DNA from: a plasmid
Direction: 5' to 3' (one strand)
DNA: 64,000 nt
Sequence record: NZ_CP067423.1
The notes under the pieces are model-generated. The model worked only from the letters and a program-made list of their open reading frames with translations. It was not told where the DNA came from and did not search any database. Below, piece by piece: positions 11,290 to 33,118 of the stretch; the stretch's first letter is position 1, and every line of letters starts with the position of its first letter. The position numbers and the translations under genes are program-made.

Positions 11290-11409
11290 TTTTCGGTCTT
11301 TTTTCCAGCCGTCAGTCCATCCCAACCAGGTCCATCCCGATACGGAAGGGTCATAAATCATACGCGTTGCTTGGCAACTCGAACCCAAAGTACCAGTGAA
11401 ACCCTAGCC

Positions 11410-11431
11410 GGTCTACCAAATTGGTTAATCC
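11410..11431. promoter_or_regulatory. Operator-like palindrome ggtctaccaaattggttaatcc, ~120 bp upstream of the GntR gene
   Basis: Contains GGT-CT-ACC and ACCA-AAT-TGGT inverted half-sites, the FadR-subfamily operator style. Related CCAAATTGG motifs recur at 17224-17330, 28756-28785 and 31411-31446. Confidence 0.45.
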
Positions 11432-11616
11432 GGCTCCGCGCTGAAGCTGCCATATGCCCGATGGTTAAGCCACCCGTTCATTAAACTCCCCACGGCATGC
11501 CTTGCGCGTAGAGATGGCCAAGCGCGGCGCCCGGCCAACACCAAGCCGATGGCCTAGCCGTAAACGCCGTCCGCCGTTCAGGGCCTTCCTCTATCGCCAC
11601 CGCACCCTCGAGACGC

Positions 11617-11690
11617 AGGTCGAAACTACCTTGCTCTCGTCAAACTCATTTCAGCTAAAATCTAGATGCAATTCATGGGTCGGTGACCTA
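11617..11690 (+). repeat. Direct repeat, copy a (~70 bp), upstream flank of the ethD-like gene
   Basis: aactaccttgctctcgtcaaactcatttcagctaaaatctagatgcaattcatgggtcggtgacc aligns at about 80% identity with 12167-12240 (aactactttgctctcgtcaagcgcgcttcagccaaaatctggatgcgctctatgaaccggtgaag). Confidence 0.55.
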
Positions 11691-11738
11691 TAAATGCCCC
11701 CGGAACGCTCGGAGAGGCGTTCAGGTAGGAGCCCGACC

Positions 11739-12053
11739 ATGATCAAGATGAGCGTCTACTATCCGGCCCATGGCGGCTCGAAGTTCGACCACGATTACTA
11801 CTGTGCCAGCCACCTGCCACTGATCAGAGAACGAATGGGCGATGCCTGCCTGCGCTACGAGATCGAGAAGGGCCTAACGGGCCGCGAACCTGGAAGCGCG
11901 CCGGAGTTCGTCGCAGCGTGCCACATCTACTCACCGAGCCTGGGGACATTCCGGGAGGCGTTCGGCCCACACCGCGCGGAGATCGTCGCGGACGTCGCCA
12001 ACTATACGGACATCGCACCCATCGTGCAGATCAGCGAAATCGTTGGAGCGTAA
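11739..12053 (+). CDS. EthD-family (Dabb/antibiotic-biosynthesis-monooxygenase-like fold) small protein
   Basis: MIKMSVYYPAHGGSKFDHDYYCASHLPLIRERMGDACLRYEIEKGL..., about 104 aa, with an AGGAG RBS upstream of the ATG at 11739. Confidence 0.55.
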   Translation: MIKMSVYYPAHGGSKFDHDYYCASHLPLIRERMGDACLRYEIEKGLTGREPGSAPEFVAACHIYSPSLGTFREAFGPHRAEIVADVANYTDIAPIVQISEIVGA

Positions 12054-12166
12054 GGGCTTCGGTGCGTCAGGCTTGGCCGTTGTCCGGGATCGGCGTCGTG
12101 CTCGCCATGACCAGCTAACCGGTGCCGAACAGGTCCACGATCAGGAACGTGTCATTGCCATTCATG

Positions 12167-12240
12167 CGACAACTACTTTGCTCTCGTCAAGCGCGCTTCA
12201 GCCAAAATCTGGATGCGCTCTATGAACCGGTGAAGTAGAC
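12167..12240 (+). repeat. Direct repeat, copy b; downstream flank of the ethD-like gene
   Basis: See copy a. Together they bracket a ~480-bp segment holding only the ethD-like gene. Confidence 0.55.
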
Positions 12241-12555
12241 CGGCGCTGGCGAACGGTTCCAGAAAGCACCCGAAGCCTGCATCATTAACTCCATCTATCT
12301 TCGAAGTAGGGGTCAAAGTTCGGTCGTGCGGATACCCGCCGGGACCAGCGCCGCGTCGATCATTGCCATGACCATGTTCTGCGGGGCCTTGCCGATGTCG
12401 ATGACATGTCGGCGGTGTCTATAGTGAGGGTGAACATGCGTCTCTCTCCTCACCTGCGAAGAGTAGAGCGAAGGTGCAGCCCGCTCACCGACTTGAGGCC
12501 AGCCTGCCGCAAAGTTCATCGGCAAAACCCGCTTCCAAGCACATTCCGCACGCAA

Positions 12556-12580
12556 AAGCCGTTTCACGCTTTTGCTTGGA
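12556..12580 (-). terminator. Possible terminator hairpin downstream of glcG (gcaaaag-N10-cttttgc)
   Basis: 7-bp perfect stem immediately 3' of the glcG stop on the minus strand. No strong U-tract follows. Confidence 0.3.
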
Positions 12581-12587
12581 AATGGGG

Positions 12588-13019
12588 TTAGCCCTTGTCC
12601 GCGGCCAGGCCTACCTGTTCGACAGCGTGCGCCGCGCAGATTTCGTCGTTGTCCGATGTATCGCCGGAGATTCCGACAGCACCGAGGGTTTCGCCCGCTT
12701 CCCCGCGTATCAGGACACCACCGGGAACCGGCACGATCTTCCCGCCGGAAACGCCGGACAGGGCTTGGACAAAATGAACACGCTCGGCGGCGGCCGCGTT
12801 CAGCCAGCGGGAGCCCGAGCCGACCGCCAGCGCGCCATAGGCTTTGCCAAAGGCGATCTCGAAGCGGAGCATGGAAGAACCATCCTGCTTCTGGAATGCG
12901 ATGAGGTGGCCGCCTGCATCGAGCACCGCGACCGAGAGCGGCTTCAGGTTGAGCTCCCGCCCCCGATCCAGCGCGGATTCGATGATGCGATTGGCGACAT
13001 TCAACGTGATGGTATTCAT
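12588..13019 (-). CDS. glcG: GlcG/HbpS-like (DUF336) protein
   Basis: MNTITLNVANRIIESALDRGRELNLKPLSVAVLDAGGHLIAFQKQDGSSMLRFEIAFGKAYGALAVG...GGVLIRGEAGETLGAVGISGDTSDNDEICA, a typical DUF336 sequence. It lies 4 bp downstream of glcB. Confidence 0.75.
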   Translation of the reverse strand: MNTITLNVANRIIESALDRGRELNLKPLSVAVLDAGGHLIAFQKQDGSSMLRFEIAFGKAYGALAVGSGSRWLNAAAAERVHFVQALSGVSGGKIVPVPGGVLIRGEAGETLGAVGISGDTSDNDEICAAHAVEQVGLAADKG

Positions 13020-13023
13020 TGTT

Positions 13024-15216
13024 TTATCCCGTTCCGAGAACGTTCTCGCCTGCCCCACTGGCCTTCAGCTCCAACCGGCGGGCGTGCAGAACCGGCTCGG
13101 TATAGCCGTTCGGCTGGGCGCGGCCCTGCAGCACCAGATCACACGCGGCCTGGAAGGCGATCGAATTCTCGAAATCCGGGGCCATCGGCCGATAAAGCGG
13201 GTCGCCCTCGTTCTGCCGGTCGACGACCGCCGCCATGCGCTTCATCGTCTCCATCACCTGATCGCGCGTACAAACGCCATGATGCAGCCAATTGGCGATG
13301 TGCTGCGAGGAGATGCGCAGCGTGGCGCGATCCTCCATCAGGCCGACATCGTTGATGTCCGGCACTTTCGAGCAGCCGACACCCTGGTCGATCCAGCGCA
13401 CGACATAACCCAGGATGCCCTGGGCGTTGTTGTCGAGTTCCTTCTGGATCTCTTCGGGCGTCCAGTTCGGCCGCAGGGCGACGGGGATCGACAGGATGTC
13501 GTCGAGCTTGGCCTTCGGGCGGTTTTTGAAACCTTCCTGCACGGCGTGCACATCGACCTTGTGGTAGTGCGTCGCATGCAGCGTCGCGGCTGTCGGCGAC
13601 GGCACCCAGGCGGTGTTGGCGCCGGCCTTCGGGTGAGCGATCTTCTCAACCAGCATCGCCGCCATCAGGTCGGGCATCGCCCACATGCCCTTGCCGATCT
13701 GGGCATGACCGGCAAGCCCGCACTCCAGGCCGGTGTCGACATTCCACGCTTCATAGGCGGAAATCCACGCCGCCTGCTTCATGTCGCCCTTGCGGATCAT
13801 CGGGCCGGCTTCCATCGAGGTGTGGATCTCGTCGCCGGTGCGGTCGAGGAAGCCGGTGTTGATGAAGACGACGCGTTCGCGGGCTGCACGGATGCATTCC
13901 TTGAGGTTGACCGTGGTGCGGCGTTCCTCATCCATGATGCCCATCTTCAGCGTGTTGGGCTGCATGCCGAGCGCCTGTTCGACGCGGCCGAAAAGCTCGA
14001 CAGCGAACGACACCTCCTCCGGCCCGTGCATCTTCGGCTTGACGATATAGACCGAGCCTGTCCGCGAATTGGCGCGGCGGCCATTAGGGCCGACATCGTG
14101 CAGCGCGATCAGGCTGGTGATCATCGCGTCCATGATGCCTTCCGGAACCTCATTGCCGTCGCGGTCGAGGATCGCCGGGTTGGTCATCAGGTGGCCGACA
14201 TTGCGCACCAGCATCAGCGAGCGGCCGGGCAGAGTCAGTTTGCTTCCGTCGGGTGCCGTATAGTCGCGGTCAGGATTGAGCTTGCGCGTGAACGTCTTGC
14301 CGCTCTTCGAGACCTCTTCCTCTAAATCGCCCTTCATCAGGCCGAGCCAGTTGCGGTAGACGGCGACCTTATCCTCGGCGTCGACCGCGGCGACCGAGTC
14401 CTCGCAGTCCTGGATGGTGGTAATGGCCGATTCCAGAATAACGTCTGAAATTCCAGCCTCGTCTTGGCTTCCGATGACGTGTTGATCATCAAGGATGATT
14501 TCGATGTGAAGGCCGTTTCTCGATAAGAGCAACGAAGACGGATTGTCGACGTCACCTAGGTACCCCGCGAATTGTGAGGGATCGCGCAACCCACCCTCCG
14601 AGGAGCCCGTCATCAGTCGAAACTGACCATCTTTAATTTGAGAACTGGTCATGTTTGACCAGCTGTCTGTCTTCAACGGCACGCTGTCATCTAAGAATGC
14701 TCGCGCCCACGCGATGACTTTCTCGCCGCGCTTGGGATTGTAGCCATTGCCCTTTTCGGCGCCGTCGGTCTCGGGAATGGCATCGGTGCCGTAGAGTGCA
14801 TCATAGAGCGAACCCCAGCGCGCGTTGGCGGCATTCAGCGCATAACGGGCATTCATCACCGGCACGACGAGTTGCGGACCGGCGACGGTGGCGATCTCCG
14901 GATCGACGTTTTCGGTGGTGACCTTGAAATCCGGACCTTCGTCCAGCAGGTAGCCGATCTCCTTGAGGAAAGCCTTGTAGGCCGCCATGTCGGACGGCGC
15001 GCCATTTTCGCGATGCCAGGCGTCGATCTTCTCCTGAATCTCGTCGCGCTTTTCGAGCAGCGCCCGGTTCTTCGGAGCGAGGTCGCGAACGATCTTGGCG
15101 AAGCCGGCCCAGAACTCTGCGAGCTTGATGCCGGTGCCCGGCATCGCGCGCTTGTTGACGAAATCGTAGAGCCCGCGATCGACCTGCAACCCGCCGACTT
15201 CGATTCGATTTGCCAT
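13024..15216 (-). CDS. glcB: Malate synthase G
   Basis: About 730 aa from the internal Met ([71 protein letters not shown]...), collinear with GlcB/AceB-G through the C-terminus. A GGAG RBS sits upstream. The listed 844-aa ORF carries an in-frame 5' extension that is a glcD fragment. Confidence 0.9.
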
Positions 15217-15685
15217 GTCCAAAGCTCCGTTATGGCGCCCCCACAGGCGCGTATCGTTTCGCGGGTTCGGTGCATAGAAAAACCCTTCCACTTCCAGCTC
15301 TGCGCTGACGGAAAGGTTCGTGACGCCGGTCTGAACCCTGATGAATCGGTTTGCGGTATCAATCTCGCGAACATCCCGCACCACGCTATCGGCCGTCGGA
15401 AGTGCGCCGCCTGCCAACGATGTCTCCGCACCGCGCGGGATAACCGGAACCCGCAGATTGTGGCAAATTCTCATCGCCGCCGCTACCTCCTCGGTGGTGC
15501 GAGGCAGAACCACGGCGAGCAGCGGACATCGGTACGCCGTCAAACGCGTCGCATTCATATGCCTGGGTTTCCTCCGGGTCCGAGACGATCGCGTCCGCGG
15601 GCAGGACGGTACTCAACGCGGCGACGATCTCGGGCTTATGGGCGATGATCGCGGCGTCGGGAACGGGCATGGCGATGCTGGACAT
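15217..15685 (-). pseudogene. glcD: Glycolate oxidase FAD-binding subunit GlcD remnant: N-terminal ~160 codons with an internal frameshift, fused to the glcB start by deletion of the rest of glcD and of glcE/glcF
   Basis: Frame A reads [48 protein letters not shown]. Frame B reads [49 protein letters not shown]...[29 protein letters not shown]. Both are collinear with the GlcD N-terminal FAD-binding domain, which is then replaced by the glcB start. Confidence 0.7.
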
Positions 15686-15935
15686 TGGCTCAATTCCGTC
15701 TGACCGAAAGCAGTGAATAACCGGACGCTCCTTCGCGCTCGCCTTCATCGAAGGCACACGAGATGCGCAGGCTCGCGACAAGCAGACTCACGAGCATCAC
15801 AGCTATTTCCCGCGCGCCGCGCGAGAATCCGGAGCGAAGGGGAAGCGCGATATTCGCTGCGGCGGCTCGCCCGCGATGACCTTGGCGCGTCGAACGGCTG
15901 AGACCGAATCCGGAGCGCACGCAGCCGGCCCTGAA

Positions 15936-17153: not shown

Positions 17154-17223
17154 ATCAACAACCCACATTCGAGATTAATAGCTTCTTTACAGAAGCTGTG
17201 GGTAATGCGTAACTGGAGTTACC

Positions 17224-17246
17224 AGATTGGTCAATCCAATTTTGGC
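17224..17246. promoter_or_regulatory. Operator-like site cagattggtcaatccaattttgg in the divergent CoA-transferase/ABC promoter region; preceded by palindrome gtaactggagttac (17201-17214)
   Basis: TGGT-CAA-TCCA inverted half-sites. Member of the recurring CCAA(A)TTGG motif family. Confidence 0.4.
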
Positions 17247-17300
17247 GCCCACCCATCCGGGGCAATATCAAATCCACGTCGCAGACATTGACGAAACTGC

Positions 17301-17330
17301 GAATCTGGTCTATCCAAATTGGTCTACAAC
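17301..17330. promoter_or_regulatory. Operator-like site gaatctggtctatccaaattggtctacaac upstream of the ABC transporter operon
   Basis: TGGT-CTA-TCCA plus CCAAATTGG. The same motif is found upstream of the GntR gene (11410-11431). Confidence 0.45.
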
Positions 17331-17395
17331 AAGGCCGCCGGGAGGGCGGCCTGCGATGCCCGCACTGGGGATCACGTTTAGGGAGGTTTTGCTGC

Positions 17396-18514
17396 ATGGC
17401 GCGAATATCGCTCCAAAATGTCTCCAAGTCGTTTGGTGGCGACCAGGGCCCTTGGGCCGTTAATAAATTCTCCCTAGAGGTAGAAGACGGCGAGCTCGTT
17501 GTTTTTGTCGGTCCTTCGGGATGCGGAAAATCGACGACACTGCGGATGATCGCTGGCCTCGACGACACCACGTCGGGCACCATCACGATCGGCGGGCGGG
17601 ATGTCACCGGTCTGCCACCGAAAGATCGCAATGTTGCGATGGTCTTTCAGAACTATGCGCTGTATCCGCAGAAGTCGGTCTACGACAACATGGCGTTCGG
17701 CCTACGGGTGCGCGGTGAAGCGAAGCAGGAGATCGACCGGCGCGTGAGGGCTGCAGCGGCCAGCCTAGACCTCGAATCCCTGCTCCACCGCAAACCGCGA
17801 CAGCTGTCGGGCGGGCAGATGCAGCGTGTGGCACTCGGGCGTGCGCTCGTGCGGGACCCCGATGTTTTCCTTCTGGACGAGCCGCTTTCCAATCTGGATG
17901 CGAAGCTGCGCGTCAAGATGCGGGAAGAAATCGCGACGCTCCATGCCCGTCTCGGGGCAACGATGATCTTCGTGACACATGACCAGGTCGAAGCAATGAC
18001 GCTTGGAGACCGTATCGTGATCATGCGCGATGGCCTGATCCAACAGGCTGGGAAGCCTCTCGAACTCTACGATCGGCCTGCAAACACGTTCGTAGCCGGG
18101 TTTATCGGTTCGCCCGAAATGAACCTGATCGACGGGCAGTTGTCCGACGCAAGCGGGCGGCTCGAGGTGCGATCGGGAGACCTTTCGGTAGGCATACCAG
18201 AAAAGACCTTCGCCAGGAGCGGACAGAACGTGACGCTTGGAATCCGGCCCGAGCACCTCGTCATCTCTAACGGCTCGCCGCTTGAGATGACCGTGAACTT
18301 GGTCGAGCAGATCGGAGCGCAGACTTATCTCATGGGCACGCTGGCCGGCCATAAGATGCGTGCCGTCCTCCAGCGTCGTGATGAAATCCGCGCCGGTGAC
18401 AAACTCCCTATCGCCTTCCCGAGTGAGCGGCTTCACCTGTTCGACTCCATTAGCGGTGCGTCGCTGCGGATGGCGCAAACGGGCGGCAAAATCGGCGTAA
18501 TGGAAAATGCGTAA
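17396..18514 (+). CDS. ABC transporter ATP-binding protein (UgpC/MalK-type, with C-terminal TOBE/regulatory domain)
   Basis: MARISLQNVSKSF...GPSGCGKST (Walker A), LSGGQMQRVALGRAL (signature), FLLDEPLSNLD (Walker B), and a MalK-like C-terminal domain. Confidence 0.9.
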   Translation: MARISLQNVSKSFGGDQGPWAVNKFSLEVEDGELVVFVGPSGCGKSTTLRMIAGLDDTTSGTITIGGRDVTGLPPKDRNVAMVFQNYALYPQKSVYDNMAFGLRVRGEAKQEIDRRVRAAAASLDLESLLHRKPRQLSGGQMQRVALGRALVRDPDVFLLDEPLSNLDAKLRVKMREEIATLHARLGATMIFVTHDQVEAMTLGDRIVIMRDGLIQQAGKPLELYDRPANTFVAGFIGSPEMNLIDGQLSDASGRLEVRSGDLSVGIPEKTFARSGQNVTLGIRPEHLVISNGSPLEMTVNLVEQIGAQTYLMGTLAGHKMRAVLQRRDEIRAGDKLPIAFPSERLHLFDSISGASLRMAQTGGKIGVMENA

Positions 18515-18774
18515 TGGCCCCCTGCGAGAGCGGCGGGTCAGGCTGATACTGCGCCCCTGGACCGTGGAGGGCGTCACCGGACTTCAGTAGGAGCTCTGTG
18601 TCGCGTCCTAACGATAGCACCTCTGGAGCGTCATAAAGGAGGGTCAACGCTATACTCGATACCGGCGACGTTAATTCTTGGCATTTGGCTTGAACTGACA
18701 AGTTAACAAGGGAGGAGCAGGAAATGAGCATTTACATTCCAGGTAGAGTGAGAATGGCGGTAGGCTTGTCCGGC

Positions 18775-20073
18775 ATGACCCGCCGCAACTTTCTTAAATC
18801 CGCTGCCGCCGTCGGAGCAGCAAGCCTCGCGGCGCCTGCGGTGGTGCGGGCCCAGTCCGGCGTCACGCTTCGGTTTCTCAACAACGAAACTTCGGTCGCT
18901 AGTCAGGCAGCCCTGAAAAAAGCGTGCGACGACTACGAAAGCAAATTCGGCGTCAAGATAATCGTCGATTCGAGCCCCATTAGCGGCACGATGCAAAAAG
19001 TGATGGCGGCGGTCGCTGCCGGCCAGCCCTATGACATCATGACTTCCGGGTTCATCGCTGGAATCTTGGAGTATATTCACGCCGGCGCCATCGTCCCGGT
19101 GACCGACCTGGTCAAAAAGTATGACTGGGGCAAGAAGGCCGCATGGGAGTATCAAGGTGAGAACTGGTACTATCCGTTCGATTACAACCTCGTCGTAAAT
19201 TATTACCGGAAAGACCTCTATGCCCAGAAAGGTCTGAAGATACCGGAGACGTGGGACGACTTCTTGAAGAACTGCCAAGCGCTTACAGTCGTTAATGGTG
19301 GAAATGTTGACGTCGGCGGCTGTGTCATACCTCTTGCAAGCGACAGCTCGACCAACTGGGCGAGCTTCGGCAATATGTTCGCCGAAGGCGCGGAGCTCTT
19401 TGACAAAGACTGGAATGTCGTTTTCGACCAGGGCGAGAACGCTGATCGTGCCACGCGCTTCTTGGATTTCTACGGCGAGTTGTACAAGACGATGCCGCCC
19501 GGCATGAACGCCGTGAGTTATGCTCAACTAATGAGTCTCTTCGCCACCGGAAAGGCGGCACACAGTGTCTATTCTGGTCGGTTGGTCGAAGCGCTTGAAG
19601 CGACTAACCCAGAACTCGCCGATAAGTACGGAATATTCCCCTCGCCTGGTAGTACCGGTCAAAAGGCACTTTCATATGCTTTTGACGGCTTCTGCGTAGG
19701 GAAGTCGAACCAAAGCGAGGAGGCGATTAAGTTCCTTCAGTGGTTTGCAGAAGAGCATTACGTCGATTGGCTGCTTTCAGCATGGATGAACAACCATCCG
19801 GCGCGCCTGGACATCTATGAGAACGAGCGTTGGAAGAGCCATCCCATGATCAAGAAGCATTGGAATACGATGATGACGATGAAGTCCTACATTGAAGGCG
19901 ACAACATCAAGATCATGGCAATCGACACCATCGGTCCTTCGATCGACATGCGTGCTTGTAACGTATTCATCGCGAATGTCATGCCGGAAATGCTCCAGCA
20001 GAAAGTCCTCGGCAACGCCTCGTCGGCTGATTGCGTCGCCGCGACTGCGCAACGCATTCGCTCCGTCATCTAA
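18775..20073 (+). CDS. ABC transporter periplasmic substrate-binding protein (solute-binding family 1, sugar-type) with a Tat-type signal peptide
   Basis: MTRRNFLKSAAAVGAASLAAPAVVRAQ (twin-arginine motif), then an SBP-like mature domain of about 400 aa. A GGAGGAG RBS sits upstream of the ORF. Confidence 0.85.
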   Translation: MTRRNFLKSAAAVGAASLAAPAVVRAQSGVTLRFLNNETSVASQAALKKACDDYESKFGVKIIVDSSPISGTMQKVMAAVAAGQPYDIMTSGFIAGILEYIHAGAIVPVTDLVKKYDWGKKAAWEYQGENWYYPFDYNLVVNYYRKDLYAQKGLKIPETWDDFLKNCQALTVVNGGNVDVGGCVIPLASDSSTNWASFGNMFAEGAELFDKDWNVVFDQGENADRATRFLDFYGELYKTMPPGMNAVSYAQLMSLFATGKAAHSVYSGRLVEALEATNPELADKYGIFPSPGSTGQKALSYAFDGFCVGKSNQSEEAIKFLQWFAEEHYVDWLLSAWMNNHPARLDIYENERWKSHPMIKKHWNTMMTMKSYIEGDNIKIMAIDTIGPSIDMRACNVFIANVMPEMLQQKVLGNASSADCVAATAQRIRSVI

Positions 20074-20122
20074 CTGCAGATCGGGGCGGCCTCCGCTGCC
20101 GCCCCGATCGTTCGTTCAAGGG

Positions 20123-21004
20123 ATGATTCTTATGGTTCAGGACCGGCGAATTGTTGCATTGTTTATTGGCAGTATCTCCTTGCTCGCATTTATTATTGGC
20201 GGCCCGTTGATTTACGCGGTTATGCTATCATTCTATTCGGCCCGTTCGTTTATGAGCGAACCCGAGTGGGTCGGCCTGAGCAACTACATCAAGGTATTGC
20301 AAGATCCTCTTTTCTGGAATTCGTTGACGAACGGCCTCACAATCGCGCTTTCGTCGATTGTCCTGCAGGTAGTTCTGGGCGTTGGAATAGCGATGGTGCT
20401 TAACAAGCGCTTTGTTGGCCAGACCATTGCACGTTCGATCGCTATTCTTCCCTACTTCCTGCCGACAGTTGTCGCCTGCCTAGTGGCCCAATGGATTCTC
20501 GAGCCAAACTACGGATTGGTAAAGACCGCTCTGGCATCCATCGGTGTTGGAATGCTCGATTGGAGTTCTCATGCCTTCACGGCCAAAGGCACAATCATAC
20601 TCGTCAGTGTGTGGTTGTGGACACCTTTTGTCGTAACCTGCGTTCTAGCTGGTTTGCAGACGATCCCAACGCAACTTTACGAAGCTGCTCGCGTCGATGG
20701 CGCCGGTGCTTGGACGCAATTCTGGCACATCACGATACCAGGCTTACGCTCGGTTCTGATCGTGGTCATCCTTCTGCGTGGCATCTGGATGTTCAACAAG
20801 TTCGATCTGATATGGCTTTTGACAAAAGGCGGGCCGCTCAACCAGACAGAGACCTTGCCTACCTTAGCCTATCGGAAGTCGTTTATTGAGTACAACCTGG
20901 GCGGGGGCGCCGCTGTGGCAACGATCTCCTTCCTCCTGCTCTCAGGCGTCATTCTCATCTATCTGCGCCTGTTCCCCATCGATGATGCAAAGCAAGGGCG
21001 ATAA
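20123..21004 (+). CDS. ABC transporter permease (MalF/UgpA-type)
   Basis: Six predicted TM segments. The EAA-type loop AARVDGAGAWTQFWHITIPGLRS is typical of the family. Confidence 0.85.
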   Translation: MILMVQDRRIVALFIGSISLLAFIIGGPLIYAVMLSFYSARSFMSEPEWVGLSNYIKVLQDPLFWNSLTNGLTIALSSIVLQVVLGVGIAMVLNKRFVGQTIARSIAILPYFLPTVVACLVAQWILEPNYGLVKTALASIGVGMLDWSSHAFTAKGTIILVSVWLWTPFVVTCVLAGLQTIPTQLYEAARVDGAGAWTQFWHITIPGLRSVLIVVILLRGIWMFNKFDLIWLLTKGGPLNQTETLPTLAYRKSFIEYNLGGGAAVATISFLLLSGVILIYLRLFPIDDAKQGR

Positions 21005-21007
21005 GAA

Positions 21008-21958: not shown

Positions 21959-22033
21959 TCCCGTCAAAAAGCGGCGGAAGATCGGTCGCGTTTTGATCTG
22001 GATTCCAAAAGCATCACCATCGGGAGAAGGTTT

Positions 22034-23683: not shown

Positions 23684-23771
23684 AAGCCTCCGTTTATCGT
23701 CCGAGGAACGCTGTAGCGGTGCGAAAAGCGCCCAGGCTGTTTTCGCAAATTTTTTGAACTCGCAGGGTACG

Positions 23772-25154
23772 ATGGCCGATTTTGATGTTGACTTGGCAGT
23801 AATTGGTGGTGGTTCAGGCGGGGTCCGCGCCGCACGGGTCGCTGCTAGCTATGGAGCCAAGGTCATCGTTGCTGAAGGAGATCGGGTCGGCGGCACCTGC
23901 GTTATCCGTGGCTGCGTACCAAAAAAGCTTATGGTCTACGCTTCAGATCTCCAGAAAGAGATCGGGAACGCGGCTGGCTTCGGATGGTCGGTCCCCCCAG
24001 CAAAATTCGATTGGGGAGTATTGACGGCAAACAGAAACAGGGAAGTCGCCCGTCTCGAGATGGCATATACGTCGACGATCGAACGTTCGGGAGCGCGCCT
24101 AGTGAAAGAGCGCGCAACGTTCCAAGACGCACGCACCTTGCGTCTTGCCAATGGGGAGACGGTGCGCGCTCGAAATATACTTATTGCCACTGGCAGCACG
24201 CCGAACCACGGGGAGGCAATACCTGGCATCGAGCATGTCATCTCGTCCGACAAGGTCTTTGAGCTTCGTGAACTGCCGCAGCGGATCCTAATTCAAGGAG
24301 GGGGCTACATTGCGGTTGAGTTCGCATGCATATTCGCCGGTCTCGGTTCGAAAGTGACCTTGGTTTGTCGCAGCGACAACATCCTGCGCGGTTTTGATGA
24401 AGACGTAAGGGCACATGTTCGTCGTGCTCTGGAGGAGCAGGGAATTCTGGTCGTCACCTCCTGCTGGATCAACAGGGTTGACAGGATTGACGAAAGCAGC
24501 GGGCTATTGAAAGCTAGTCTTTCAAACGCTGAACAGCTCGTCGCAGACCAAGTCATGTTTGCGATTGGACGAAAGCCCAACACGCAGGACCTAAATCTCC
24601 AGAATTCTGGCGTTGCGCTAAGCCCTGACAGCGGCGGCGTCGCGGTCAACGAGAACTCGCAGACCAATGTGCCCCATATCTACGCGGTCGGCGACGTGAC
24701 AAACCGCGTAAACCTTACCCCTGTAGCGGTGCGCGAGGGCCAGGCCTTTGCAGATTCGGTATTTGGCGAGCGTCCCACGCAGGTCGACTATGCGGATATC
24801 CCGACTGCGGTTTTCTCGCGTCCGGAAGTCGGATCCGTTGGGCTATCAGAGGCACAAGCCTGTGCCCTGTTTGAAAGGGTGGACATCTACAAAACGGATT
24901 TTCGGCCCATGAAGGTCGCCCTCTCCCACAGCTCCGAACGAATGATGATGAAGCTCGTCGTAGATGCAGATTCCGGGAGGGTTGTCGGCTGCCATATTGT
25001 CGGATCAGGCGCGGCGGAGATCATCCAGGCAGTTGCGATTGCGATAAGAATGAAAGCCGTAAAGGAGGACTTTGATGCAACAATGGCTCTTCATCCAACA
25101 GCGGCGGAAGAACTTGTCACGATGCGGACACCGACCAAGCGCTGCGTTCGATAA
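23772..25154 (+). CDS. Pyridine nucleotide-disulfide oxidoreductase, glutathione-disulfide reductase-like
   Basis: MADFDVDLAVIGGGSGGVRAARVAASYGAKVIVAE...GGTCVIRGCVPKK (redox-active CxxxxC), a second NAD(P)-binding GGGYIAVEFA, and a C-terminal dimerisation domain with HPT(A)AEE. Confidence 0.8.
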   Translation: MADFDVDLAVIGGGSGGVRAARVAASYGAKVIVAEGDRVGGTCVIRGCVPKKLMVYASDLQKEIGNAAGFGWSVPPAKFDWGVLTANRNREVARLEMAYTSTIERSGARLVKERATFQDARTLRLANGETVRARNILIATGSTPNHGEAIPGIEHVISSDKVFELRELPQRILIQGGGYIAVEFACIFAGLGSKVTLVCRSDNILRGFDEDVRAHVRRALEEQGILVVTSCWINRVDRIDESSGLLKASLSNAEQLVADQVMFAIGRKPNTQDLNLQNSGVALSPDSGGVAVNENSQTNVPHIYAVGDVTNRVNLTPVAVREGQAFADSVFGERPTQVDYADIPTAVFSRPEVGSVGLSEAQACALFERVDIYKTDFRPMKVALSHSSERMMMKLVVDADSGRVVGCHIVGSGAAEIIQAVAIAIRMKAVKEDFDATMALHPTAAEELVTMRTPTKRCVR

Positions 25155-25289
25155 TGCATTTGTGTAGTCAGTCGGACTCTTCTTGCTTCACCTCAATGCG
25201 CTGGGAAGACCATGCTGAGGCGGTCGAACTTCGGTCTTAGGGGTGCTCGCAGCTCTCATCTTTGCTACCATGAAAGCTAATAACGGCTA

Positions 25290-26034
25290 ATCACATGAAC
25301 AGCCCCTCTAACCGCGTGTGGATAATAGTCAACGATGGATTCGAAGGCGTTGCGATAAGCTATTTGGACGTCTCAGCTGCTGGCAACTTCCAGCAGCCTT
25401 CAACTCATCCATTTTCACTCGTGAGAACAATTCGTCGATTTATCAGCAATTTATGTCGATCAGCATTCACGAGGACATATTAGCACATGCCTCTGTCGAG
25501 CCACGCATTTCCTAATCGAAGTGCTCTGAGTCAACCGCAGCACTCTGAATAGCCACAGGATCTCGGAGGCTCCATGTGCGGATGTATATGGACCCCGCCC
25601 AATTGCAACAGTCGGCTGGATCAGGATCGATGGTCACAACTGCTGATGTATATCCGGCTGCGTGATGCGGCTGGACAACGTCTTCGCCGCGAGCCTCGAT
25701 GGGTTGATGGGTTTTCGCCGCTTCCACCTCAAAGCCCCGATGACATTGGTTAACGCCATGCCGGTCCACACATCAGGTTCTGGAAGCGACGGGGTGACCG
25801 TTTCGCCATCTCCTGCCATTGGCTGCAATTGGCGGGGTGGGACCTCCTTTAGTTATTGGCCGCTTCTATTCAGGCCGCCTTCACCGACAGCGCGGCCCCT
25901 TTGCGGAAGTCGACCGGCGTGCTCGCAACATAAACCGTCACGCCCGAAGGGATGCTTGAGTACGTTCAGCTGGCGTATCTGGTCTGGTCGGTGCAGGTGC
26001 GCCAGCGGACGCAGCTGATCGACGCTTTGCGCGT
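25290..26034 (-). mobile_element. IS66-family remnant: decayed tnpB plus stub of tnpC, interrupted by the IS21 insertion at about 26035
   Basis: Minus-strand frames give ...PDVWTGMALTNVIGALRWKRR... and ...TSAVVTIDPDPADCCNWAGSIYIRTWSL..., which resemble IS66 TnpB (VWLATGYTDMRKGFDGLA... / ...ISPAQLSYLLEGIDWRxPQRTW). They are split over two frames. The low-GC tail at 25290-25500 starts an MDELKAAG.. tnpC-like ORF that is cut short. Confidence 0.45.
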
Positions 26035-26178
26035 GTAAGTGCCGGGTGAATACTCCTCAGATCGGGCGGATGAACTTTCCCCAGGCTGACGCAACGGCAC
26101 GGCTCCGGAGCAGGCGCCTCGGAACCGTGTAGCCGCCCTTGGCCCATAATCCCCTCAGTCGATTGAGGGAGGGCGTGG

Positions 26179-27453
26179 GTGGTCACACTTGGGGAACTCG
26201 TCATGATTCTCGATCTCGCCCGCCAGGGGCTGAGCGTGTCGGCAATCGCGCGCCGGACCGGCCTGGACCGCAAGACCATCCGAAAGTACATCGCCAAGGG
26301 GCTGGAGCCGCCCGCCTACACGCCGCGGCCCCCGCGACAGACCCTTGTCGGCCCCTTTGAACCCTATCTGCGGGAGCGCCTCCAGGCCTTCCCGGAACTC
26401 AGCGGCCGACGTCTGCTCCGGGACATCCGCGCGCTCGGCTACCAGGGCGGCTATACCGTGCTGAAGGATTTCCTGCGTACCGTCCGGCCCAGGCCCGAGA
26501 CACAGTTCGAGCGCCGGTTCGAGACACCGCCCGGCAAGCAGGCCCAGGTCGATTTCGCCTTCTTCAAGACCGTGTTCACCGACCAGCCCGACGTCGAGCG
26601 GATCGTCTGGCTGTTCTCGATCGTGCTCGGCCACAGCCGCATGATGTGGGCCCGCTTCGTCGCCCGCCAGGATCTGCCGACCGTGCTCCGGTGCCACATC
26701 GCCGCCTTCGAGGCGTTCGGCGGCGTGCCCGAGCAGATCCTTTATGACCGCATGAAGACCGCCGTGCTCGGTGACGTCGAGGACCCCGACCAGCCGGCCA
26801 AGGGGATCGCCTACAATGCCAAGCTCCTCGATCTGGCCGCCTGCTACGGTTTCCTGCCGAAGGCCTGCAGGCCCTACCGGGCACAGACCAAGGGCAAGGT
26901 GGAGCGGCCCTTCCGCTATGTCCGGGAGGACTTCTTCCTCGCCCGCACCTTCCGCAATCTGGACGACCTGAACGCCCAGTTCGTCCAGTGGCTGGACCAG
27001 GTCGCCAACGTTCGCCTGCACGCCACCACCCAGCGTGTCGTCGTCGAGCATTTCGCCGAGGAGCGCGATCACCTCAAGGCCCTCCCGGCCGGTCCCTTCA
27101 ACACCGTGCTGGCACTCGAGCGCCGCATCACCCGCGACGGCATGGTCTCCGTCGCCGGCAATCTCTACTCCGTGCCCGACAGCACCCGCCGGCGGACCGT
27201 CGAGGTGCAGATTACCGCCGGCGCGGTCAACATCCTGGAGGACGGCATCCTCATCGCCTCCCATCCGGCACAGGAAGGCCGCGGCCAGCGCCGGATCGCT
27301 CCCGGTCACCGCACCCAGCCGCCGCCGGCCAACAGCAGGACGGCCCGGGAGGAGGCCAGGCCCGAGCCTCGGGGCAGCACGGTGACACCCCGTTCGCTGG
27401 CCATCTACGACGCGATCGGCCGCCGTCTCGCCAGCCAGCAGGGTGTCCCATGA
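26179..27453 (+). CDS. istA: IS21-family transposase IstA
   Basis: 424 aa. HTH N-terminus (LSVSAIARRTGLDRKTIRKYI), then DDE core ...QVDFAF...YDRMKTAV...LPKACRPYRAQTKGKVER... and the IstA C-terminal region. Confidence 0.9.
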   Translation: MVTLGELVMILDLARQGLSVSAIARRTGLDRKTIRKYIAKGLEPPAYTPRPPRQTLVGPFEPYLRERLQAFPELSGRRLLRDIRALGYQGGYTVLKDFLRTVRPRPETQFERRFETPPGKQAQVDFAFFKTVFTDQPDVERIVWLFSIVLGHSRMMWARFVARQDLPTVLRCHIAAFEAFGGVPEQILYDRMKTAVLGDVEDPDQPAKGIAYNAKLLDLAACYGFLPKACRPYRAQTKGKVERPFRYVREDFFLARTFRNLDDLNAQFVQWLDQVANVRLHATTQRVVVEHFAEERDHLKALPAGPFNTVLALERRITRDGMVSVAGNLYSVPDSTRRRTVEVQITAGAVNILEDGILIASHPAQEGRGQRRIAPGHRTQPPPANSRTAREEARPEPRGSTVTPRSLAIYDAIGRRLASQQGVP

Positions 27454-28328
27454 CCGCAACCACCCTCGATCCGGCGGCCAGCCCCGCCACGCTCGACCGC
27501 ATCCGCGCTCACCTGGTCGGTCTCAACATGCCGCGCGCGCTCGAAGTGCTGGAGCATATCCTGCGGCGGATCGAACGCGGCGAGATCTCGGCCCTGGAGG
27601 CCATCGACACCCTGCTCGGCGAGGAACTGACCCTGCGGGAGGGGCGACGCGTCAGGTCCGCGCTGAAGATGGGCCGGCTGATCAACATCAAGACCCTGGG
27701 CGGGTTCGACTTCTCCTTCCAGCCCTCGCTTGACCGCGACCGCATCATGGCGCTGGCCCAGCTCGACTTCGTCGATCGCCACGAGGCGGTCCATTTCCTC
27801 GGTCAACCCGGCTGCGGCAAAACCCATCTGGCGCTGGCCCTCGGTGTCGAGGCGGTCAAGTCCGGTCGTTCGGTCTACTTCGCCACCCTGGCCGACATCG
27901 TCAGTTCGCTCGCCAAGGCGGAGCGGGAAGGCACCCTGCGCGAACGCCTGCGTTTTCTGTGCCGGCCCCAGTTGCTGATCGTCGATGAGATCGGCTATCT
28001 GCCCGTCATCCCGGGGGGCGGCAACCTATTCTTCCAGCTGGTAAATGCCCGTTACGAACGCGGCGCGATGATCCTGACCTCGAACCGCGGCTTTGCCGAA
28101 TGGGGCGATGTCTTCGGCGGCACCGTCGTCGCCACCGCGCTGCTGGACCGCCTGCTACACCATGCCGTTGTCGTTCAGATCGAGGGAGCCAGCTACCGGC
28201 TCCGCCGCCACGCCGACCTGATCCCGGACAACACTCGAACCCGATCCATCACTACCCCTCAACCTCAACCACGCCGCCGGGGACGACCACCGAAAATGAC
28301 CTCTACCCAGCCAGACACCGACCTATAA
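27450..28328 (+). CDS. istB: IS21-family helper ATPase IstB
   Basis: MTATTLDPAASPATLDRIRAHLVGLNMPRALEVLEHIL..., Walker A GQPGCGKTHLA, Walker B LLIVDEIGY, sensor SNRGFAEWG. The start overlaps the istA stop (ATGA). Confidence 0.9.
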   Translation: MTATTLDPAASPATLDRIRAHLVGLNMPRALEVLEHILRRIERGEISALEAIDTLLGEELTLREGRRVRSALKMGRLINIKTLGGFDFSFQPSLDRDRIMALAQLDFVDRHEAVHFLGQPGCGKTHLALALGVEAVKSGRSVYFATLADIVSSLAKAEREGTLRERLRFLCRPQLLIVDEIGYLPVIPGGGNLFFQLVNARYERGAMILTSNRGFAEWGDVFGGTVVATALLDRLLHHAVVVQIEGASYRLRRHADLIPDNTRTRSITTPQPQPRRRGRPPKMTSTQPDTDL

Positions 28329-28755
28329 CCTGACAAACCGACTGGGGATTATTCACCCGCCCGATCTGGGGAAGCTTCATCCGCCCTTTACAGCGCGGGC
28401 ATCTTGCCGAACGCGGCATCATCGCACCACAAGGTCCGGCTCACCTGAAAACCTTAGCTGCCGCGATTGATGCCGCCGAACCAGCGATGCCCCAACTGGT
28501 CCTCGACCTTGGTCGCGTACCTCGAGCAGGTCGACCGGTTGAGCCGCGAAGATTGGAGAGCTGGAGAAATCCTTCGCCGTGAAGCCCCACGCGGGGAGGA
28601 TACACCCACCTTCGGACCACGCCGGGAATTGGCCCGATCACGGCCATGGCGGTGGAAGCGTGTGCGCCCCCAATGGCGACCTTAAGCGAGGTCGCGACTA
28701 TAGCGGTGGCGCAGTTCGGAGCGTGATCTGCTCCGAGAGCCATTGACTGAGAAAA

Positions 28756-28785
28756 CTGGATATGCCAAATTGGTCAAACCAGATC
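28756..28785. promoter_or_regulatory. Operator-like site ctggatatgccaaattggtcaaaccagatc upstream of the FAD-linked oxidase gene
   Basis: Contains CCAAATTGG and the palindromic half-sites TGGTCAAACCA (TGGT-N3-ACCA). Confidence 0.4.
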
Positions 28786-28852
28786 GCGATGTTTTCCCAA
28801 ACGATGCGCACCTGGATGGTTGGACGTCGAAAATCTCGAAGGAGGAAGCGCC

Positions 28853-30505
28853 GTGGCGAAGGAAAAGAGCGGCTACTATGGCACGCGAAGGAAATTCTGG
28901 TCGTGGGGATATGAAGGTGAAGATAACTCCCAGGACGAAATCCGTACCATGCGAGACCGCGTGGAGCAGCGGCTTGGGATTAAGGATATCGAAGTTCTCT
29001 CGGACCCGACCCTTGATGAGATTGAACTTTATCCGTCGCGCATAAAGATCCCGCGAACGCTGGAAGATTTCTGCACCACGGAAAAGTGGGACAGAGTTGT
29101 CCATACCTACGGTAAGGGTTTTAAGGACATGACCCTTATCTACCGGCGCGATTTCAAGAAGGCTCCGGACGTCGTGGCCTATCCGCGCGACGAAGAAGAT
29201 ATTGCCGCCATCTTCGACTGGTGTGGCGAAAACGGCTATGCATGCATACCGTATGGCGGTGGATCGAGCGTCACAGGAGGCTTCTGGGGTCCCGAGCGCG
29301 ACGCCTTTCCCGGCGTGGTCGTTATTGACCTGGGCAACCTCAACCAGATTCTCGAAATCGACCCTGTGTCACGCTGCGCGCGGATCCAGGCAGGCATTCT
29401 CGGGCCGGCTCTGGAAGAACAACTGAAGCCGCACGGCCTCACCCTGCGCCATATTCCGCAATCGTGGGAATTCTCATCGCTGGGCGGCTGGATCGCAACC
29501 CGGTCGTCCGGTCACTATGCGACCCATCTCACGCATATCGACGACATGGTGGAAAGCCTGCGCGTCGTCACGCCAGCGGGGACGATCCAGAATCGCCGGC
29601 TGCCTGCCTCAGGTGCGGGACCAAATCCGGATCGCATGTTCATCGGGTCTGAAGGCACGATGGGCATCATCACTGATGCATGGATGCGTCTGCAGGGGCG
29701 TGTGAAATTCCGTGCGAATGCATCGATCTCCTTCAAGTCGTTCTATGAGGGTGCCAAGGCCGTCCGTCAAATCACCCAAGCGGGACTGTTCCCGGCGAAC
29801 GCTCGCTATCTCGACGAGCAGGACGCCAAATTCTACGGCGCTGGAGACGGCACCGATTCCGTCTTGCTGCTGGGCTTCGAATCCGCCGACCATCCGGTGG
29901 ACGCATGGCTGGAGCGTGGTCTCGAAATCTGCAAGGACTTCGGTGGCGTCGTGAAGCAGCGCGCGGGAACAGCAGACAACGCGCTGGAAACCAGCCGCAG
30001 CGGGCCGCAGGGTAACTGGCGGCACCAGTTCAGGTATCTGCCCCGGCTGATGCATACGCGCGCTGCGATGGGAATCGTGAGCTTCACGTTCGAAACCGCC
30101 TATACTTGGGATCGGTTCGAAGAAGTCGATACCGAGATCATGCGTCGCGTGCGAACGGCCCAGAAGGAACATCTTGGCGGTGGCATCGTCTGCCGCAGGT
30201 TCTCCTTCCTGTATCCGGACGGTCCGGCTCCATACTACTCGATCATGGCTCCTTCGACACATGCCAACAGCCTCGAAGCCTATTCGATGCTCCACGACGT
30301 GGCGTCGGACGCCCTAATAGAGCTCGGCGCCACCATCACGCACCATCATGCTGTCGGCAAATCGTTCCGTCCTTGGTACGACAAAGAAGTCGATCCGTTG
30401 TTCCGCCGTGTGCTGGCAGCCGCCAAGACCGAGCTGGACCCGAAGTGGATGTTGAATCCTGGGCTGATCGTCGACAAGCCCACAGGGCTCAAGATCGTCG
30501 GATAG
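28853..30505 (+). CDS. FAD-linked oxidase (FAD_binding_4 / alkyl-DHAP synthase- or D-lactate dehydrogenase-like); GTG start at 28853 after an AGGAGGA RBS
   Basis: ...DVVAYPRDEEDIAAIFDWCGENGYACIPYGGGSSVTGG... (FAD-binding PCMH domain), ...GSEGTMGIITDAWMRLQ..., C-terminal ...HHHAVGKSFRPWYDKE.... Confidence 0.8.
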   Translation: MAKEKSGYYGTRRKFWSWGYEGEDNSQDEIRTMRDRVEQRLGIKDIEVLSDPTLDEIELYPSRIKIPRTLEDFCTTEKWDRVVHTYGKGFKDMTLIYRRDFKKAPDVVAYPRDEEDIAAIFDWCGENGYACIPYGGGSSVTGGFWGPERDAFPGVVVIDLGNLNQILEIDPVSRCARIQAGILGPALEEQLKPHGLTLRHIPQSWEFSSLGGWIATRSSGHYATHLTHIDDMVESLRVVTPAGTIQNRRLPASGAGPNPDRMFIGSEGTMGIITDAWMRLQGRVKFRANASISFKSFYEGAKAVRQITQAGLFPANARYLDEQDAKFYGAGDGTDSVLLLGFESADHPVDAWLERGLEICKDFGGVVKQRAGTADNALETSRSGPQGNWRHQFRYLPRLMHTRAAMGIVSFTFETAYTWDRFEEVDTEIMRRVRTAQKEHLGGGIVCRRFSFLYPDGPAPYYSIMAPSTHANSLEAYSMLHDVASDALIELGATITHHHAVGKSFRPWYDKEVDPLFRRVLAAAKTELDPKWMLNPGLIVDKPTGLKIVG

Positions 30506-30518
30506 GGGTTCTTCAGCG

Positions 30519-31208
30519 ATGATTGATCTATACTTCTGGCCAACCCCCAACGGGTATAAAGCCGCTATAATGCTTGCAGAGCTGGACTTGGAGTACCGTG
30601 TTATTCCGGTTGATATAACCGCAGGAAAGCAATTTGAGCCGGAATTCCTGAAGATCAATCCAAACAACAAAGTGCCGGCCATCGTTGACCACGATGGCCC
30701 GCACAACAAGCCTTACGCTGTTTTTGAATCGGCGGTTGTTCTACTCTATCTTGCGGAAAAGTCCGGAAAGTTCCTTTCTCAGGACCCGGAAAAACGATAC
30801 GATACGCTAAAGTGGCTTGTGTTTCAGAATACCACGATGGGCCCAATGCTGGGCCAAGCACATCATTTCATGGTGTATGCGACTGAGAAGATCGATTACG
30901 CCATCGAACGTTACGACCGGGAAGTTGGTCGAATATACAACATTCTCGAGAAGCGCCTTGCCGAATATGAATATCTCGCCGGCGAGTATTCTATCGCTGA
31001 CATCAGCACATTCCCTTGGGTTCGCACGCGGAAATTGCATCGACGCGACCTGTCGGAGTACCCGAACATTGATCGTTGGTACCAGGCGATCAAAGACCGT
31101 CCGGGGGTTCGTGCGGGCATAGACACATTGTCCGACAGCAAGCAGTGGGAAGCGAAGCCGGGCACCGACGCTTGGAAGAATATGTTCGGAAAGAACGGCA
31201 GTTCGTAA
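30519..31208 (+). CDS. Glutathione S-transferase (YfcG/Nu-class-like)
   Basis: MIDLYFWPTPNGYKAAIMLAELDLEYRVIPVDITAGKQFEPEFLKINPNNKVPAIVDH...FESAVVLLYLAEK, with a GST C-terminal domain. Confidence 0.85.
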   Translation: MIDLYFWPTPNGYKAAIMLAELDLEYRVIPVDITAGKQFEPEFLKINPNNKVPAIVDHDGPHNKPYAVFESAVVLLYLAEKSGKFLSQDPEKRYDTLKWLVFQNTTMGPMLGQAHHFMVYATEKIDYAIERYDREVGRIYNILEKRLAEYEYLAGEYSIADISTFPWVRTRKLHRRDLSEYPNIDRWYQAIKDRPGVRAGIDTLSDSKQWEAKPGTDAWKNMFGKNGSS

Positions 31209-31410
31209 CAATCACACAAAATCCTCCCAGGCCTCAGGCGCGGCGGTCTATTCGTCGCGCCTGAGGCCGCGTAGGGGCAGTTGATGCAGGGCGGTCCCTA
31301 TGGGGCTGGCGCAGGATCTTGGAAATTTTGCGCGGCCGAAATGCCGTTTGAAATCGCCCAATACGTGACCACGAACTCGGCTGATGGATCCACTATCTAC
31401 TTGACAGCCA

Positions 31411-31446
31411 GTAAATTGGATGACCAAATTGGATATACCAATTGCC
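31411..31446. promoter_or_regulatory. Operator-like region gtaaattggatgaccaaattggatataccaattgcc upstream of the acyl-CoA ligase gene; a TTGACA -35-like hexamer lies at 31401
   Basis: Two to three tandem/overlapping (C)CAAATTGG(A) units, plus TGGATATACCA (TGGA-N3-ACCA). Confidence 0.4.
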
Positions 31447-32992: not shown

Positions 32993-33118
32993 ATAGTTTG
33001 AGCTGTCGGTTCGACACTTCCTTCCGAAGCGCTCTGGACCATGAGTCCGACCCATATAGTATCTCCGACAAGGTCCGCAATCCCGCAAAAAACTCGATAT
33101 GGAGAACCCGCCTCGCCA

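Follow-up and report, generated by a model that had tools for sequence, protein, structure and literature searches.

A predicted FadR-type GntR regulon with five putative operators on a mobile plasmid island

The island and its recurrent sites

Within a 64,000-nt stretch of plasmid record NZ_CP067423.1 (the window; coordinates are positions in it, and its GC content is 61.1%), an island of catabolic genes carries five copies of an inverted-repeat element, here named O1 to O5. Each copy lies 38-143 bp upstream of a start codon, in a window of which only 20% is intergenic. Quite probably, the five sites are the operators of a regulator encoded on the same plasmid, a GntR protein of the FadR subfamily (FCD type; gene at 10561-11289), and a FadR-type, autoregulated regulon is well supported in silico. 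This would provide a concrete regulon for an uncharacterised FCD-type repressor, with five operators serving four catabolic operons and the regulator gene. The window matches three Aminobacter plasmids at 100% identity (pMDW3, NZ_CP060200.1; pMET2, NZ_CP114192.1; and a plasmid of strain SR38), the sole difference being one additional copy of an insertion sequence (IS) of the IS21 family in the window. The gene map, drawn from public annotation and from Pfam and NCBIfam searches, is given below together with the five sites.

10561-11289, minus strand: gntR, GntR/FCD regulator WP_093037017.1 (242 aa; GntR winged helix-turn-helix and FCD domains)
11408-11432: O1, CCGGTCTACCAAATTGGTTAATCCG, 119-143 bp upstream of the gntR ATG (11289)
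11739-12053, plus strand: EthD gene (annotation and Pfam)
12588-13019, minus strand: glcG-like gene, downstream in the O2 operon
13024-15216, minus strand: glcB, malate synthase G, downstream in the O2 operon
15262-15702 (ends approximate), minus strand: 5' remnant of glcD, recognised by a FAD_binding_4 match and by colinearity with related loci L002 and L012
15936-17153, minus strand: family III CoA-transferase gene, first of the leftward operon under O2
17214-17238: O2, TGGAGTTACCAGATTGGTCAATCCA, 61-85 bp upstream of the CoA-transferase start (minus strand)
17306-17330: O3, TGGTCTATCCAAATTGGTCTACAAC, 66-90 bp upstream of the ATP-binding cassette (ABC) ATPase gene
17396-18514, plus strand: ABC ATPase gene, first of the O3 operon (17396-25154)
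18724-20073, plus strand: solute-binding protein gene, O3 operon
20132-21958, plus strand: two permease genes, O3 operon
22034-23683, plus strand: GMC oxidoreductase (GMC flavoprotein dehydrogenase) gene, O3 operon
23772-25154, plus strand: gorA, glutathione reductase, O3 operon
26179-28328, plus strand: istAB of the IS21 element (Pfam)
28757-28781: O4, TGGATATGCCAAATTGGTCAAACCA, 72-96 bp upstream of the FAD-oxidase gene
28853-30505, plus strand: FAD-linked oxidase gene, first of the O4 operon (28853-31208)
30519-31208, plus strand: Nu-class glutathione S-transferase (GST) gene, O4 operon
31416-31440: O5, TTGGATGACCAAATTGGATATACCA, 38-62 bp upstream of the acyl-CoA ligase gene
31478-32992, plus strand: acyl-CoA ligase gene, first of the O5 operon (31478-34554)
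33118-34554, plus strand: aldehyde dehydrogenase (ALDH) gene, O5 operon
35072-36232, plus strand: iron-containing alcohol dehydrogenase (Fe-ADH) gene, after a 517-bp gap that holds an opposite-strand open reading frame (ORF)

The AT-rich nonamer CCAAATTGG occurs exactly on the plus strand at 11416, 17314, 28765 and 31424 (four copies), with the variant CCAGATTGG at 17222. When aligned on the nonamer, all five sites share the composite TGG-N4/5-CCAA-W-TTGG-N5-CCA, and the consensus of 14 sites from five lineages, TGGnttnACCAAaTTGGTnaanCCA, is a 25-bp pseudo-palindrome. We read each 25-bp site as two putative FadR-type dimer palindromes of the form TGG(T)-N3/N2-(A)CCA, with centres 13-14 bp apart. 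Most units have N3 spacing; N2 units are found in O1, in O5 (the shorter GT-AC spacing of its left unit) and in both halves of the ligase operator of Xanthobacter. Known operators of the FadR subfamily consist of TKGT and ACMA boxes separated by 3 nt, or by 2 nt in some groups (PMC4494728); the sites fit this palindromic TKGT-N3 (or N2)-ACMA form in an A/T-rich context, as the initial annotation of this DNA had proposed. That annotation had also placed a site at 17224-17246; the conserved composite is O2 at 17214-17238 (an invariant block across five lineages) and the CCAATTTTGG tail (17236-17245) is unconserved in orthologs. Beyond about 45 bp the sites have no extended similarity to one another. 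A lone TGGTTAAGCCA box also lies in the gntR-ethD intergenic region at 11462-11472, 30 bp from O1, and may be an auxiliary half-operator or a chance occurrence.

Statistics and conservation of the sites

The expected number of CCAAATTGG copies in the window, counting both strands, is 0.31-0.45 (Markov orders 1-4), and the earlier estimate of fewer than one chance hit was thus correct. The excess of the nonamer (p=3.8e-5) ranks sixth among 41,328 9-mers and is not significant after multiple testing; with five other 9-mers at least as enriched, its over-representation was rejected as a sole argument. The significance of the motif instead derives from its extended architecture, as seen in two counts. 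The pattern TGG-N4/5-CCA-N2/3-TGG-N4/5-CCA has three exact copies against 0.01 expected (100 dinucleotide shuffles) and, with at most one mismatch, seven matches against 1.07 expected, all of them at 17.2-17.3, 28.76 and 31.42 kb; O1 has two mismatches to this composite and so falls outside the seven. In addition, a scan made with no prior motif over the part of the window that carries no annotated gene (12.5 kb, 20%) placed CCAA-N1-TTGG first of 2816 palindromic 4-mer dyads (5 observed, 0.165 expected, p=9e-7).

Two further matches were put down to chance, as both are without flanking half-sites and have a low matrix score: the fifth dyad match, at 7450 (ACCAACTTGGT), and CCAATTTGG, the reverse complement of the nonamer, at 62424. 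The latter lies inside a coding region, and the earlier statement that all hits are promoter-proximal and intergenic consequently holds for the five sites but not for this one.

Orthologous islands are found in several lineages, with regulator identities of 100% in Nitratireductor arenosus, 91% in a Mesorhizobium metagenome-assembled genome (MAG), 86% on plasmid 4 of Pseudorhizobium flavum, 63% on the plasmids of Xanthobacter dioxanivorans YN2 and Ancylobacter polymorphus ZM13, and 60% in Methylobacterium gnaphalii. The search for conservation at orthologous loci that had been suggested earlier was positive: in the P. flavum, Mesorhizobium, Nitratireductor, Xanthobacter and Ancylobacter islands, composite sites stand at the matching promoters, namely those of gntR (not in Xanthobacter), the divergent CoA-transferase/ABC region (two sites), the FAD oxidase and the ligase. 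The site upstream of gntR is kept in P. flavum, the Mesorhizobium MAG, Nitratireductor and other MAGs. The sites hold their position at orthologous promoters although the surrounding intergenic DNA has diverged. When the upstream regions of the CoA-transferase/ABC and FAD-oxidase genes are aligned with their Xanthobacter-type counterparts, what stays invariant is the TTGAC box, the half-sites of the operator and the ribosome-binding site, while the N3 spacers and the central W (A or T) vary. For the ligase upstream regions of the window and Xanthobacter, automatic alignment gave no result and the correspondence was read by eye.

A matrix built from the four Xanthobacter sites only ranks the window sites 1-5 in the whole 64 kb, with 32.9 bits for O4 (the top score in the window), 28.9 for O5, 24.4 for O2, 24.2 for O3 and 15.9 for O1, the weakest of the five. 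The next, unrelated match scores 9.8 bits and the maximum in shuffled sequence is 17.7; upstream of the MaoC, GMC, ALDH, Fe-ADH and EthD genes this matrix finds no site of at least 10 bits. In the reverse test, a matrix of the window sites was run over 439 kb of other DNA and gave matches of at least 14 bits only in loci with a GntR protein 48-100% identical to the plasmid regulator, all at promoters adjoining the regulator except one (14.4 bits, locus L015, 14556). Ten loci with a 22-31% identical GntR protein gave no match of at least 14 bits, and neither did Sphingopyxis or the remainder of the plasmid. Three homologous FAD-oxidase-GST clusters that have an AraC gene and no GntR gene (Sphingopyxis locus L004, and loci L027 and L028) are without an operator site; the L004 cluster, with its AraC regulator, is 88% identical at the DNA level.

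Some more distant loci also carry related sites. In a marine TARA contig (L029, 1-14219), a gene for a 44%-identical GntR protein is divergent from a FAD-oxidase gene, and all three exact copies of TGGT-N3-ACCA in its 21.6 kb lie in two promoter regions, upstream of dctP and of the FAD-oxidase gene. Genes for a P450 (with its ferredoxin and reductase), a CoA-transferase, a ligase, an ALDH, a GST and a TRAP transporter are present as well, and the locus suggests that this clade of regulators also controls a marine pathway for ethers (O-dealkylation). In a Candidatus Solibacter MAG (L016, 2427-2572), two composite sites are found upstream of an MFS_2 transporter gene that adjoins a 48%-identical GntR fragment, and the operator type therefore extends beyond the Proteobacteria. 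Upstream of the X. dioxanivorans ligase gene (L005, 8593-8619), AATGGTATACCAcAATGGTATACCATT is a pair of perfect 10-bp palindromes, both of N2 spacing, that repeat with a period of 13 bp; this variant resembles the GGTATA repeats of NanR type, and the Aminobacter ligase operator likewise has an N2 left unit.

The regulator, its regulon and the pathway

WP_093037017.1 contains a GntR winged helix-turn-helix (PF00392, E=3.5e-15, 55.8 bits against a cut-off of 27) and an FCD domain (PF07729, E=1.2e-23, 84.3 bits against a cut-off of 24.3, covering profile positions 1-124 of 125), in keeping with the earlier assignment of the neighbouring gene to the FadR type. Its columns DEAFH, DDH and DRH align with DVDFH, QQH and QSH in NanR (6on4) and with the corresponding columns in 7xp0, and the Asp and His residues typical of the FCD metal/ligand pocket appear to be retained. 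The best NCBIfam and Protein Data Bank matches are to the NanR, LldR and PdhR group. When compared with the equivalog models for LldR, PdhR, GlcC, NanR, UxuR and ExuR, none of the cut-offs was reached (NanR 114/260, LldR 91/311, PdhR 64/330 and GlcC 48/301 bits, score/cut-off), and since these scores are far below the cut-offs the regulator is not an ortholog of NanR, LldR, PdhR or GlcC. A literature search for a published, characterised regulator of this cluster found none. With the LldR/PdhR/GlcC/NanR group it shares the two-domain architecture and, by prediction, a TGGT-N3-ACCA operator with A/T flanks (PMC4494728); the FCD columns appear to be alike. It differs from the group in that a single regulon combines N3 with N2 units, and from LldR, PdhR and NanR in its predicted cargo, which concerns ethers, glycols and glyoxylate instead of the metabolism of lactate, pyruvate or sialate. 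For the biology of regulation it is a textbook example of the FadR type, with a putative operator for two dimers in which N3 and N2 spacings are mixed, and its interest lies mainly in the cargo pathway.

The placement of the sites relative to -35-like boxes is regular. The boxes are TTGACG at 17288-17293 for O3, TTGACT at 28743-28748 for O4 and TTGACA at 31401-31406 for O5, with the operator starting 12 bp, 8 bp and about 10 bp downstream, respectively; the distances between TTGAC and operator at the Xanthobacter FAD-oxidase and ligase promoters are as in the window. The boxes fit the alphaproteobacterial promoter consensus. In O2, the spacer GGTCAA (17229-17234) is invariant and corresponds to TTGACC on the minus strand, that of the CoA-transferase gene, and O2 likely contains the -35 box of that promoter. 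As the operators cover the spacer and -10 region of three promoters, or contain the likely -35 box (O2), the unliganded GntR protein would block RNA polymerase by occlusion. The distance between the inner CCAA and TTGG, judged from the FadR-DNA complex, is too short for a single winged-helix dimer, and for this reason two dimers probably occupy each 25-bp operator. Cooperative binding is probable because several sites are adjacent; in this they resemble the targets of NanR, which binds cooperatively as multiple dimers on GGTATA repeats. Release would be brought about by a carboxylate intermediate of the pathway, bound in a predicted metal-containing FCD pocket. Candidate effectors are glycolate, an alkoxyacetate (polyethylene glycol (PEG)-carboxylate, 2-hydroxyethoxyacetate or diglycolate) or possibly a CoA ester.

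A close parallel is offered by Pden_4400 (GlcR) from Paracoccus denitrificans, which belongs to the FadR subfamily and represses glcDEF until glycolate releases it (PMC11323563). Likened by subfamily and cargo, both are alphaproteobacterial FadR-type regulators, and the regulon here ancestrally included glcDEF and still holds glcB and glcG; by this analogy a glycolate-type effector is plausible. Unlike that of GlcR, the present regulon is much larger and plasmid-borne, and among plasmids there was no Paracoccus match to the regulator at E<=1e-20.

The predicted regulon comprises gntR; the CoA-transferase-(glcDEF, deleted here)-glcB-glcG operon; the ABC transporter-GMC dehydrogenase-gorA operon; the FAD oxidase-GST operon; and the acyl-CoA ligase-ALDH operon. 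Malate synthase G and glcG would thus belong to it, as glcDEF did ancestrally, and the single regulon linking uptake, CoA activation or transfer, and oxidation that the initial annotation had envisaged is predicted by both the shared sites and the comparative evidence. Autoregulation, also envisaged there, is predicted from the site upstream of gntR, O1, which is likely the autoregulatory site. The membership of EthD is doubtful: its gene lies 307 bp from O1 and is missing in relatives that keep O1, and EthD was rejected as a member. Fe-ADH, which had been counted into the ligase operon, was rejected as well, being missing from the P. flavum cluster; its place in the O5 operon is doubtful because the 517-bp gap and the opposite-strand ORF precede its gene.

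The gene content matches that of the PEG pathway, which starts with a PEG-dehydrogenase of the GMC type, continues with an aldehyde dehydrogenase and the ligase PegE, and reaches glyoxylate and then malate by way of an ether-cleaving PEG-carboxylate dehydrogenase with a GST (PMC11644497, PMC7299911). Protein identities to the PEG cluster of Sphingopyxis macrogoltabida (strain EY-1) are 90% for the FAD oxidase, 93% for the GST, 66% for the ligase and 63% for the GMC dehydrogenase. As in the peg clusters of S. macrogoltabida and S. terrae, with their homologs of the GMC dehydrogenase, ligase, FAD oxidase and GST, the pathway here would end in glyoxylate, as judged from the genes alone. A glycol-ether or PEG-type alcohol would be oxidised to the aldehyde and the acid (or acyl-CoA), followed by ether cleavage to glyoxylate and its conversion to malate, and the island probably serves to degrade PEG, glycol-ether or dioxane breakdown products to glyoxylate. 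The control differs: in Sphingopyxis regulation is by the AraC-type PegR, GalR-type sites have also been described and uptake is by a TonB-dependent receptor (PMC11644497), whereas here a putative GntR repressor and an ABC transporter take the place of PegR and of the TonB-dependent receptor PegB. No AraC or TonB receptor gene was found in the island (Pfam, annotation), and unlike the window the Sphingopyxis locus has no GntR-type operator.

The plasmid clusters of the 1,4-dioxane degraders YN2 and ZM13 share the gene set of the island, near-syntenically arranged, and have the same operators at the CoA-transferase/ABC, ligase and FAD-oxidase promoters. They differ in that the FAD oxidase-GST module comes after the ligase-ALDH module, glcDEF has been kept intact, gntR lacks an upstream site, and the ligase operator has two N2 units (TGGTATACCA, twice). 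In X. dioxanivorans YN2, GE05986-GE05994 are upregulated 1.3-4.3-fold on dioxane, with GE05990 among the genes used for validation by reverse transcription quantitative PCR (PMC8508750); from gene order alone (glcF, glcE, glcD, x, x, ALDH, x, x, ALDH), we infer that these genes are the YN2 plasmid cluster. Tentatively, and as a speculative extension that may well prove wrong, the regulator could be a dedicated sensor of xenobiotic ether-carboxylates or their CoA esters (PEG-carboxylate; 2-hydroxyethoxyacetate from 1,4-dioxane or diethylene glycol; diglycolate), and its mobile five-promoter regulon could be the so far undefined 'lower pathway' to glyoxylate in degraders of dioxane, glycol ethers and PEG. 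If so, the regulator and its 25-bp operator would constitute a ready-made biosensor part for such pollutants. More generally, the gene content points to the poorly defined steps from ether-carboxylate to glyoxylate, which are relevant to the bioremediation of PEG, glycol ethers and dioxane, and the regulator together with its operator could be used as a biosensor or as a module for inducible expression.

Competing explanations and the mosaic structure of the island

Several observations weigh against the proposed regulon and its pathway. A strict scan for E. coli-type sigma-70 promoters found none in any of the four regions, so that only the conserved TTGAC boxes carry the argument that operators and promoters overlap, and no promoter could be placed relative to O1. 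The O1 score of 15.9 bits falls within the range of the shuffled controls (maximum 17.7). Information content is higher at the inner CCAA/TTGG (2.0 bits) than at the outer TGG/CCA (0.8-1.4 bits), and this stronger inner conservation, which is partly an effect of anchoring the alignment, makes the register of the protein on the DNA less certain. Autoregulation is not universal, as the Xanthobacter gntR has no site upstream. M. gnaphalii has one clear composite site, in the CoA-transferase/gntR intergenic region, and no convincing site upstream of its FAD-oxidase gene, which a LacI gene adjoins. As regards the pathway, the FAD oxidase is tentatively equated with the PEG-carboxylate dehydrogenase, after Somyoonsap et al. 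2008, and the database names of its homologs are uninformative ('alkyldihydroxyacetonephosphate synthase', 'FAD-binding oxidoreductase'). The induction of the YN2 genes on dioxane is modest.

Against this background, other explanations of the sites may be considered. They could be genuine FadR-type operators bound mainly by another regulator, e.g. a chromosomal LldR-, PdhR-, GlcC- or GlcR-like protein. The TGGT-N3-ACCA box is common to several groups of the subfamily, including LldR, PdhR and GlcC (PMC4494728), cross-recognition is plausible given that the plasmid regulator scores best against the NanR, LldR and PdhR models, and the operon ancestrally held glcDEF, which in Paracoccus is under the glycolate-released GlcR (PMC11323563). 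This is nevertheless unlikely, since the sites and the regulator travel together on mobile DNA in Aminobacter, Nitratireductor, Pseudorhizobium, Mesorhizobium, Xanthobacter, Ancylobacter, Methylobacterium and the marine contig, vanish together in the AraC-type clusters, and in the Aminobacter, Pseudorhizobium and Mesorhizobium group one site stands upstream of gntR itself.

The shared sequence might also be a promoter element (-10 or extended), given its fixed, short distance downstream of the TTGAC boxes at the expected place of a -10 and the possibility that CAAATT or CCAAAT acts as a weak -10. However, a 25-bp dyad with conserved half-sites and drifting spacers is typical of the site of a dimeric protein and not of a -10, and in O3 the nonamer is 21 bp from the -35 box, which is too far. 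A related suggestion is that the sites are the target of an activator, with GntR activating in the manner of E. coli GlcC, a member of the same subfamily (PMC11323563); yet sites that cover the spacer and -10 or, in O2, the -35 are in the classical position for repression, and we judge the promoter-element and activator readings together to be quite unlikely. Lastly, the repeats could play no part in regulation and be either fortuitous matches or relics of duplicated or mobile DNA. This would agree with the 9-mer excess that alone is not significant after multiple testing and with an island that is a mosaic containing IS and Tn remnants. Such an origin is highly improbable: the composite and dyad counts are far beyond chance, the sites have no similarity to one another past about 45 bp, they keep their position in diverged orthologous intergenic DNA, and a matrix from another genus (Xanthobacter) predicts them. 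By the composite counts, the dyad scan, these footprints and the cross-genus matrix it is essentially refuted. Operators of the plasmid-encoded GntR protein thus continue to offer the preferred explanation of the five sites.

The island is mobile, with orthologs on the plasmids of two 1,4-dioxane degraders, and is 100% identical in the Aminobacter plasmids, the genome of N. arenosus and several MAGs. The IS21-family element occupies 26034-28392 (2.36 kb; 26029-28397 with its 5-bp target duplication, GCGCG), has terminal inverted repeats with the ends TGTAAG...CTTTACA, and encodes IstA (rve transposase) and IstB (IstB_IS21 ATPase). The three Aminobacter plasmids, identical to the window in all other respects, lack it, whereas a plasmid of Skermanella sp. 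TT6 carries a copy with 100% identity, so that its transfer or insertion is recent. Located 360 bp upstream of O4, it is harmless to the operators and is not part of the regulon. The initial annotation had held that IS66 and IS21 insertions split the regulon. No IS66, and no TnpB or TnpC (DDE_Tnp_IS66), was found in Pfam searches of every unannotated ORF or in the public annotations; the division into operator-controlled units predates the IS21 insertion, because the same layout of several operators and operons exists in pMDW3 and Xanthobacter with no IS between the units.

Other rearrangements have left their mark. Between the CoA-transferase and malate synthase G genes (region 15217-15935, junction at about 15262-15267), a 3.46-kb deletion has removed the 3' part of glcD, glcE and glcF, and the remaining 5' stub of glcD forms one long ORF with glcB (13024-15558). 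glcDEF is adjacent in the relatives L012, L002 and L005, with the whole CoA-transferase-glcDEF-glcB-glcG block intact in the Mesorhizobium MAG (L012); in P. flavum, 1.3 kb has instead been lost inside glcB. Gene fragments on both flanks of the island are signs of mosaic assembly: part of an ALDH gene at 9833-10327, lying between gntR and the MaoC gene, and part of a 4HBT thioesterase gene at 36342-36602, after the Fe-ADH gene. Upstream of the island, 85-4832 holds a site-specific integrase gene and a module of tniA (Mu-type transposase), tniB and tniQ, which may be the vehicle that moves it.

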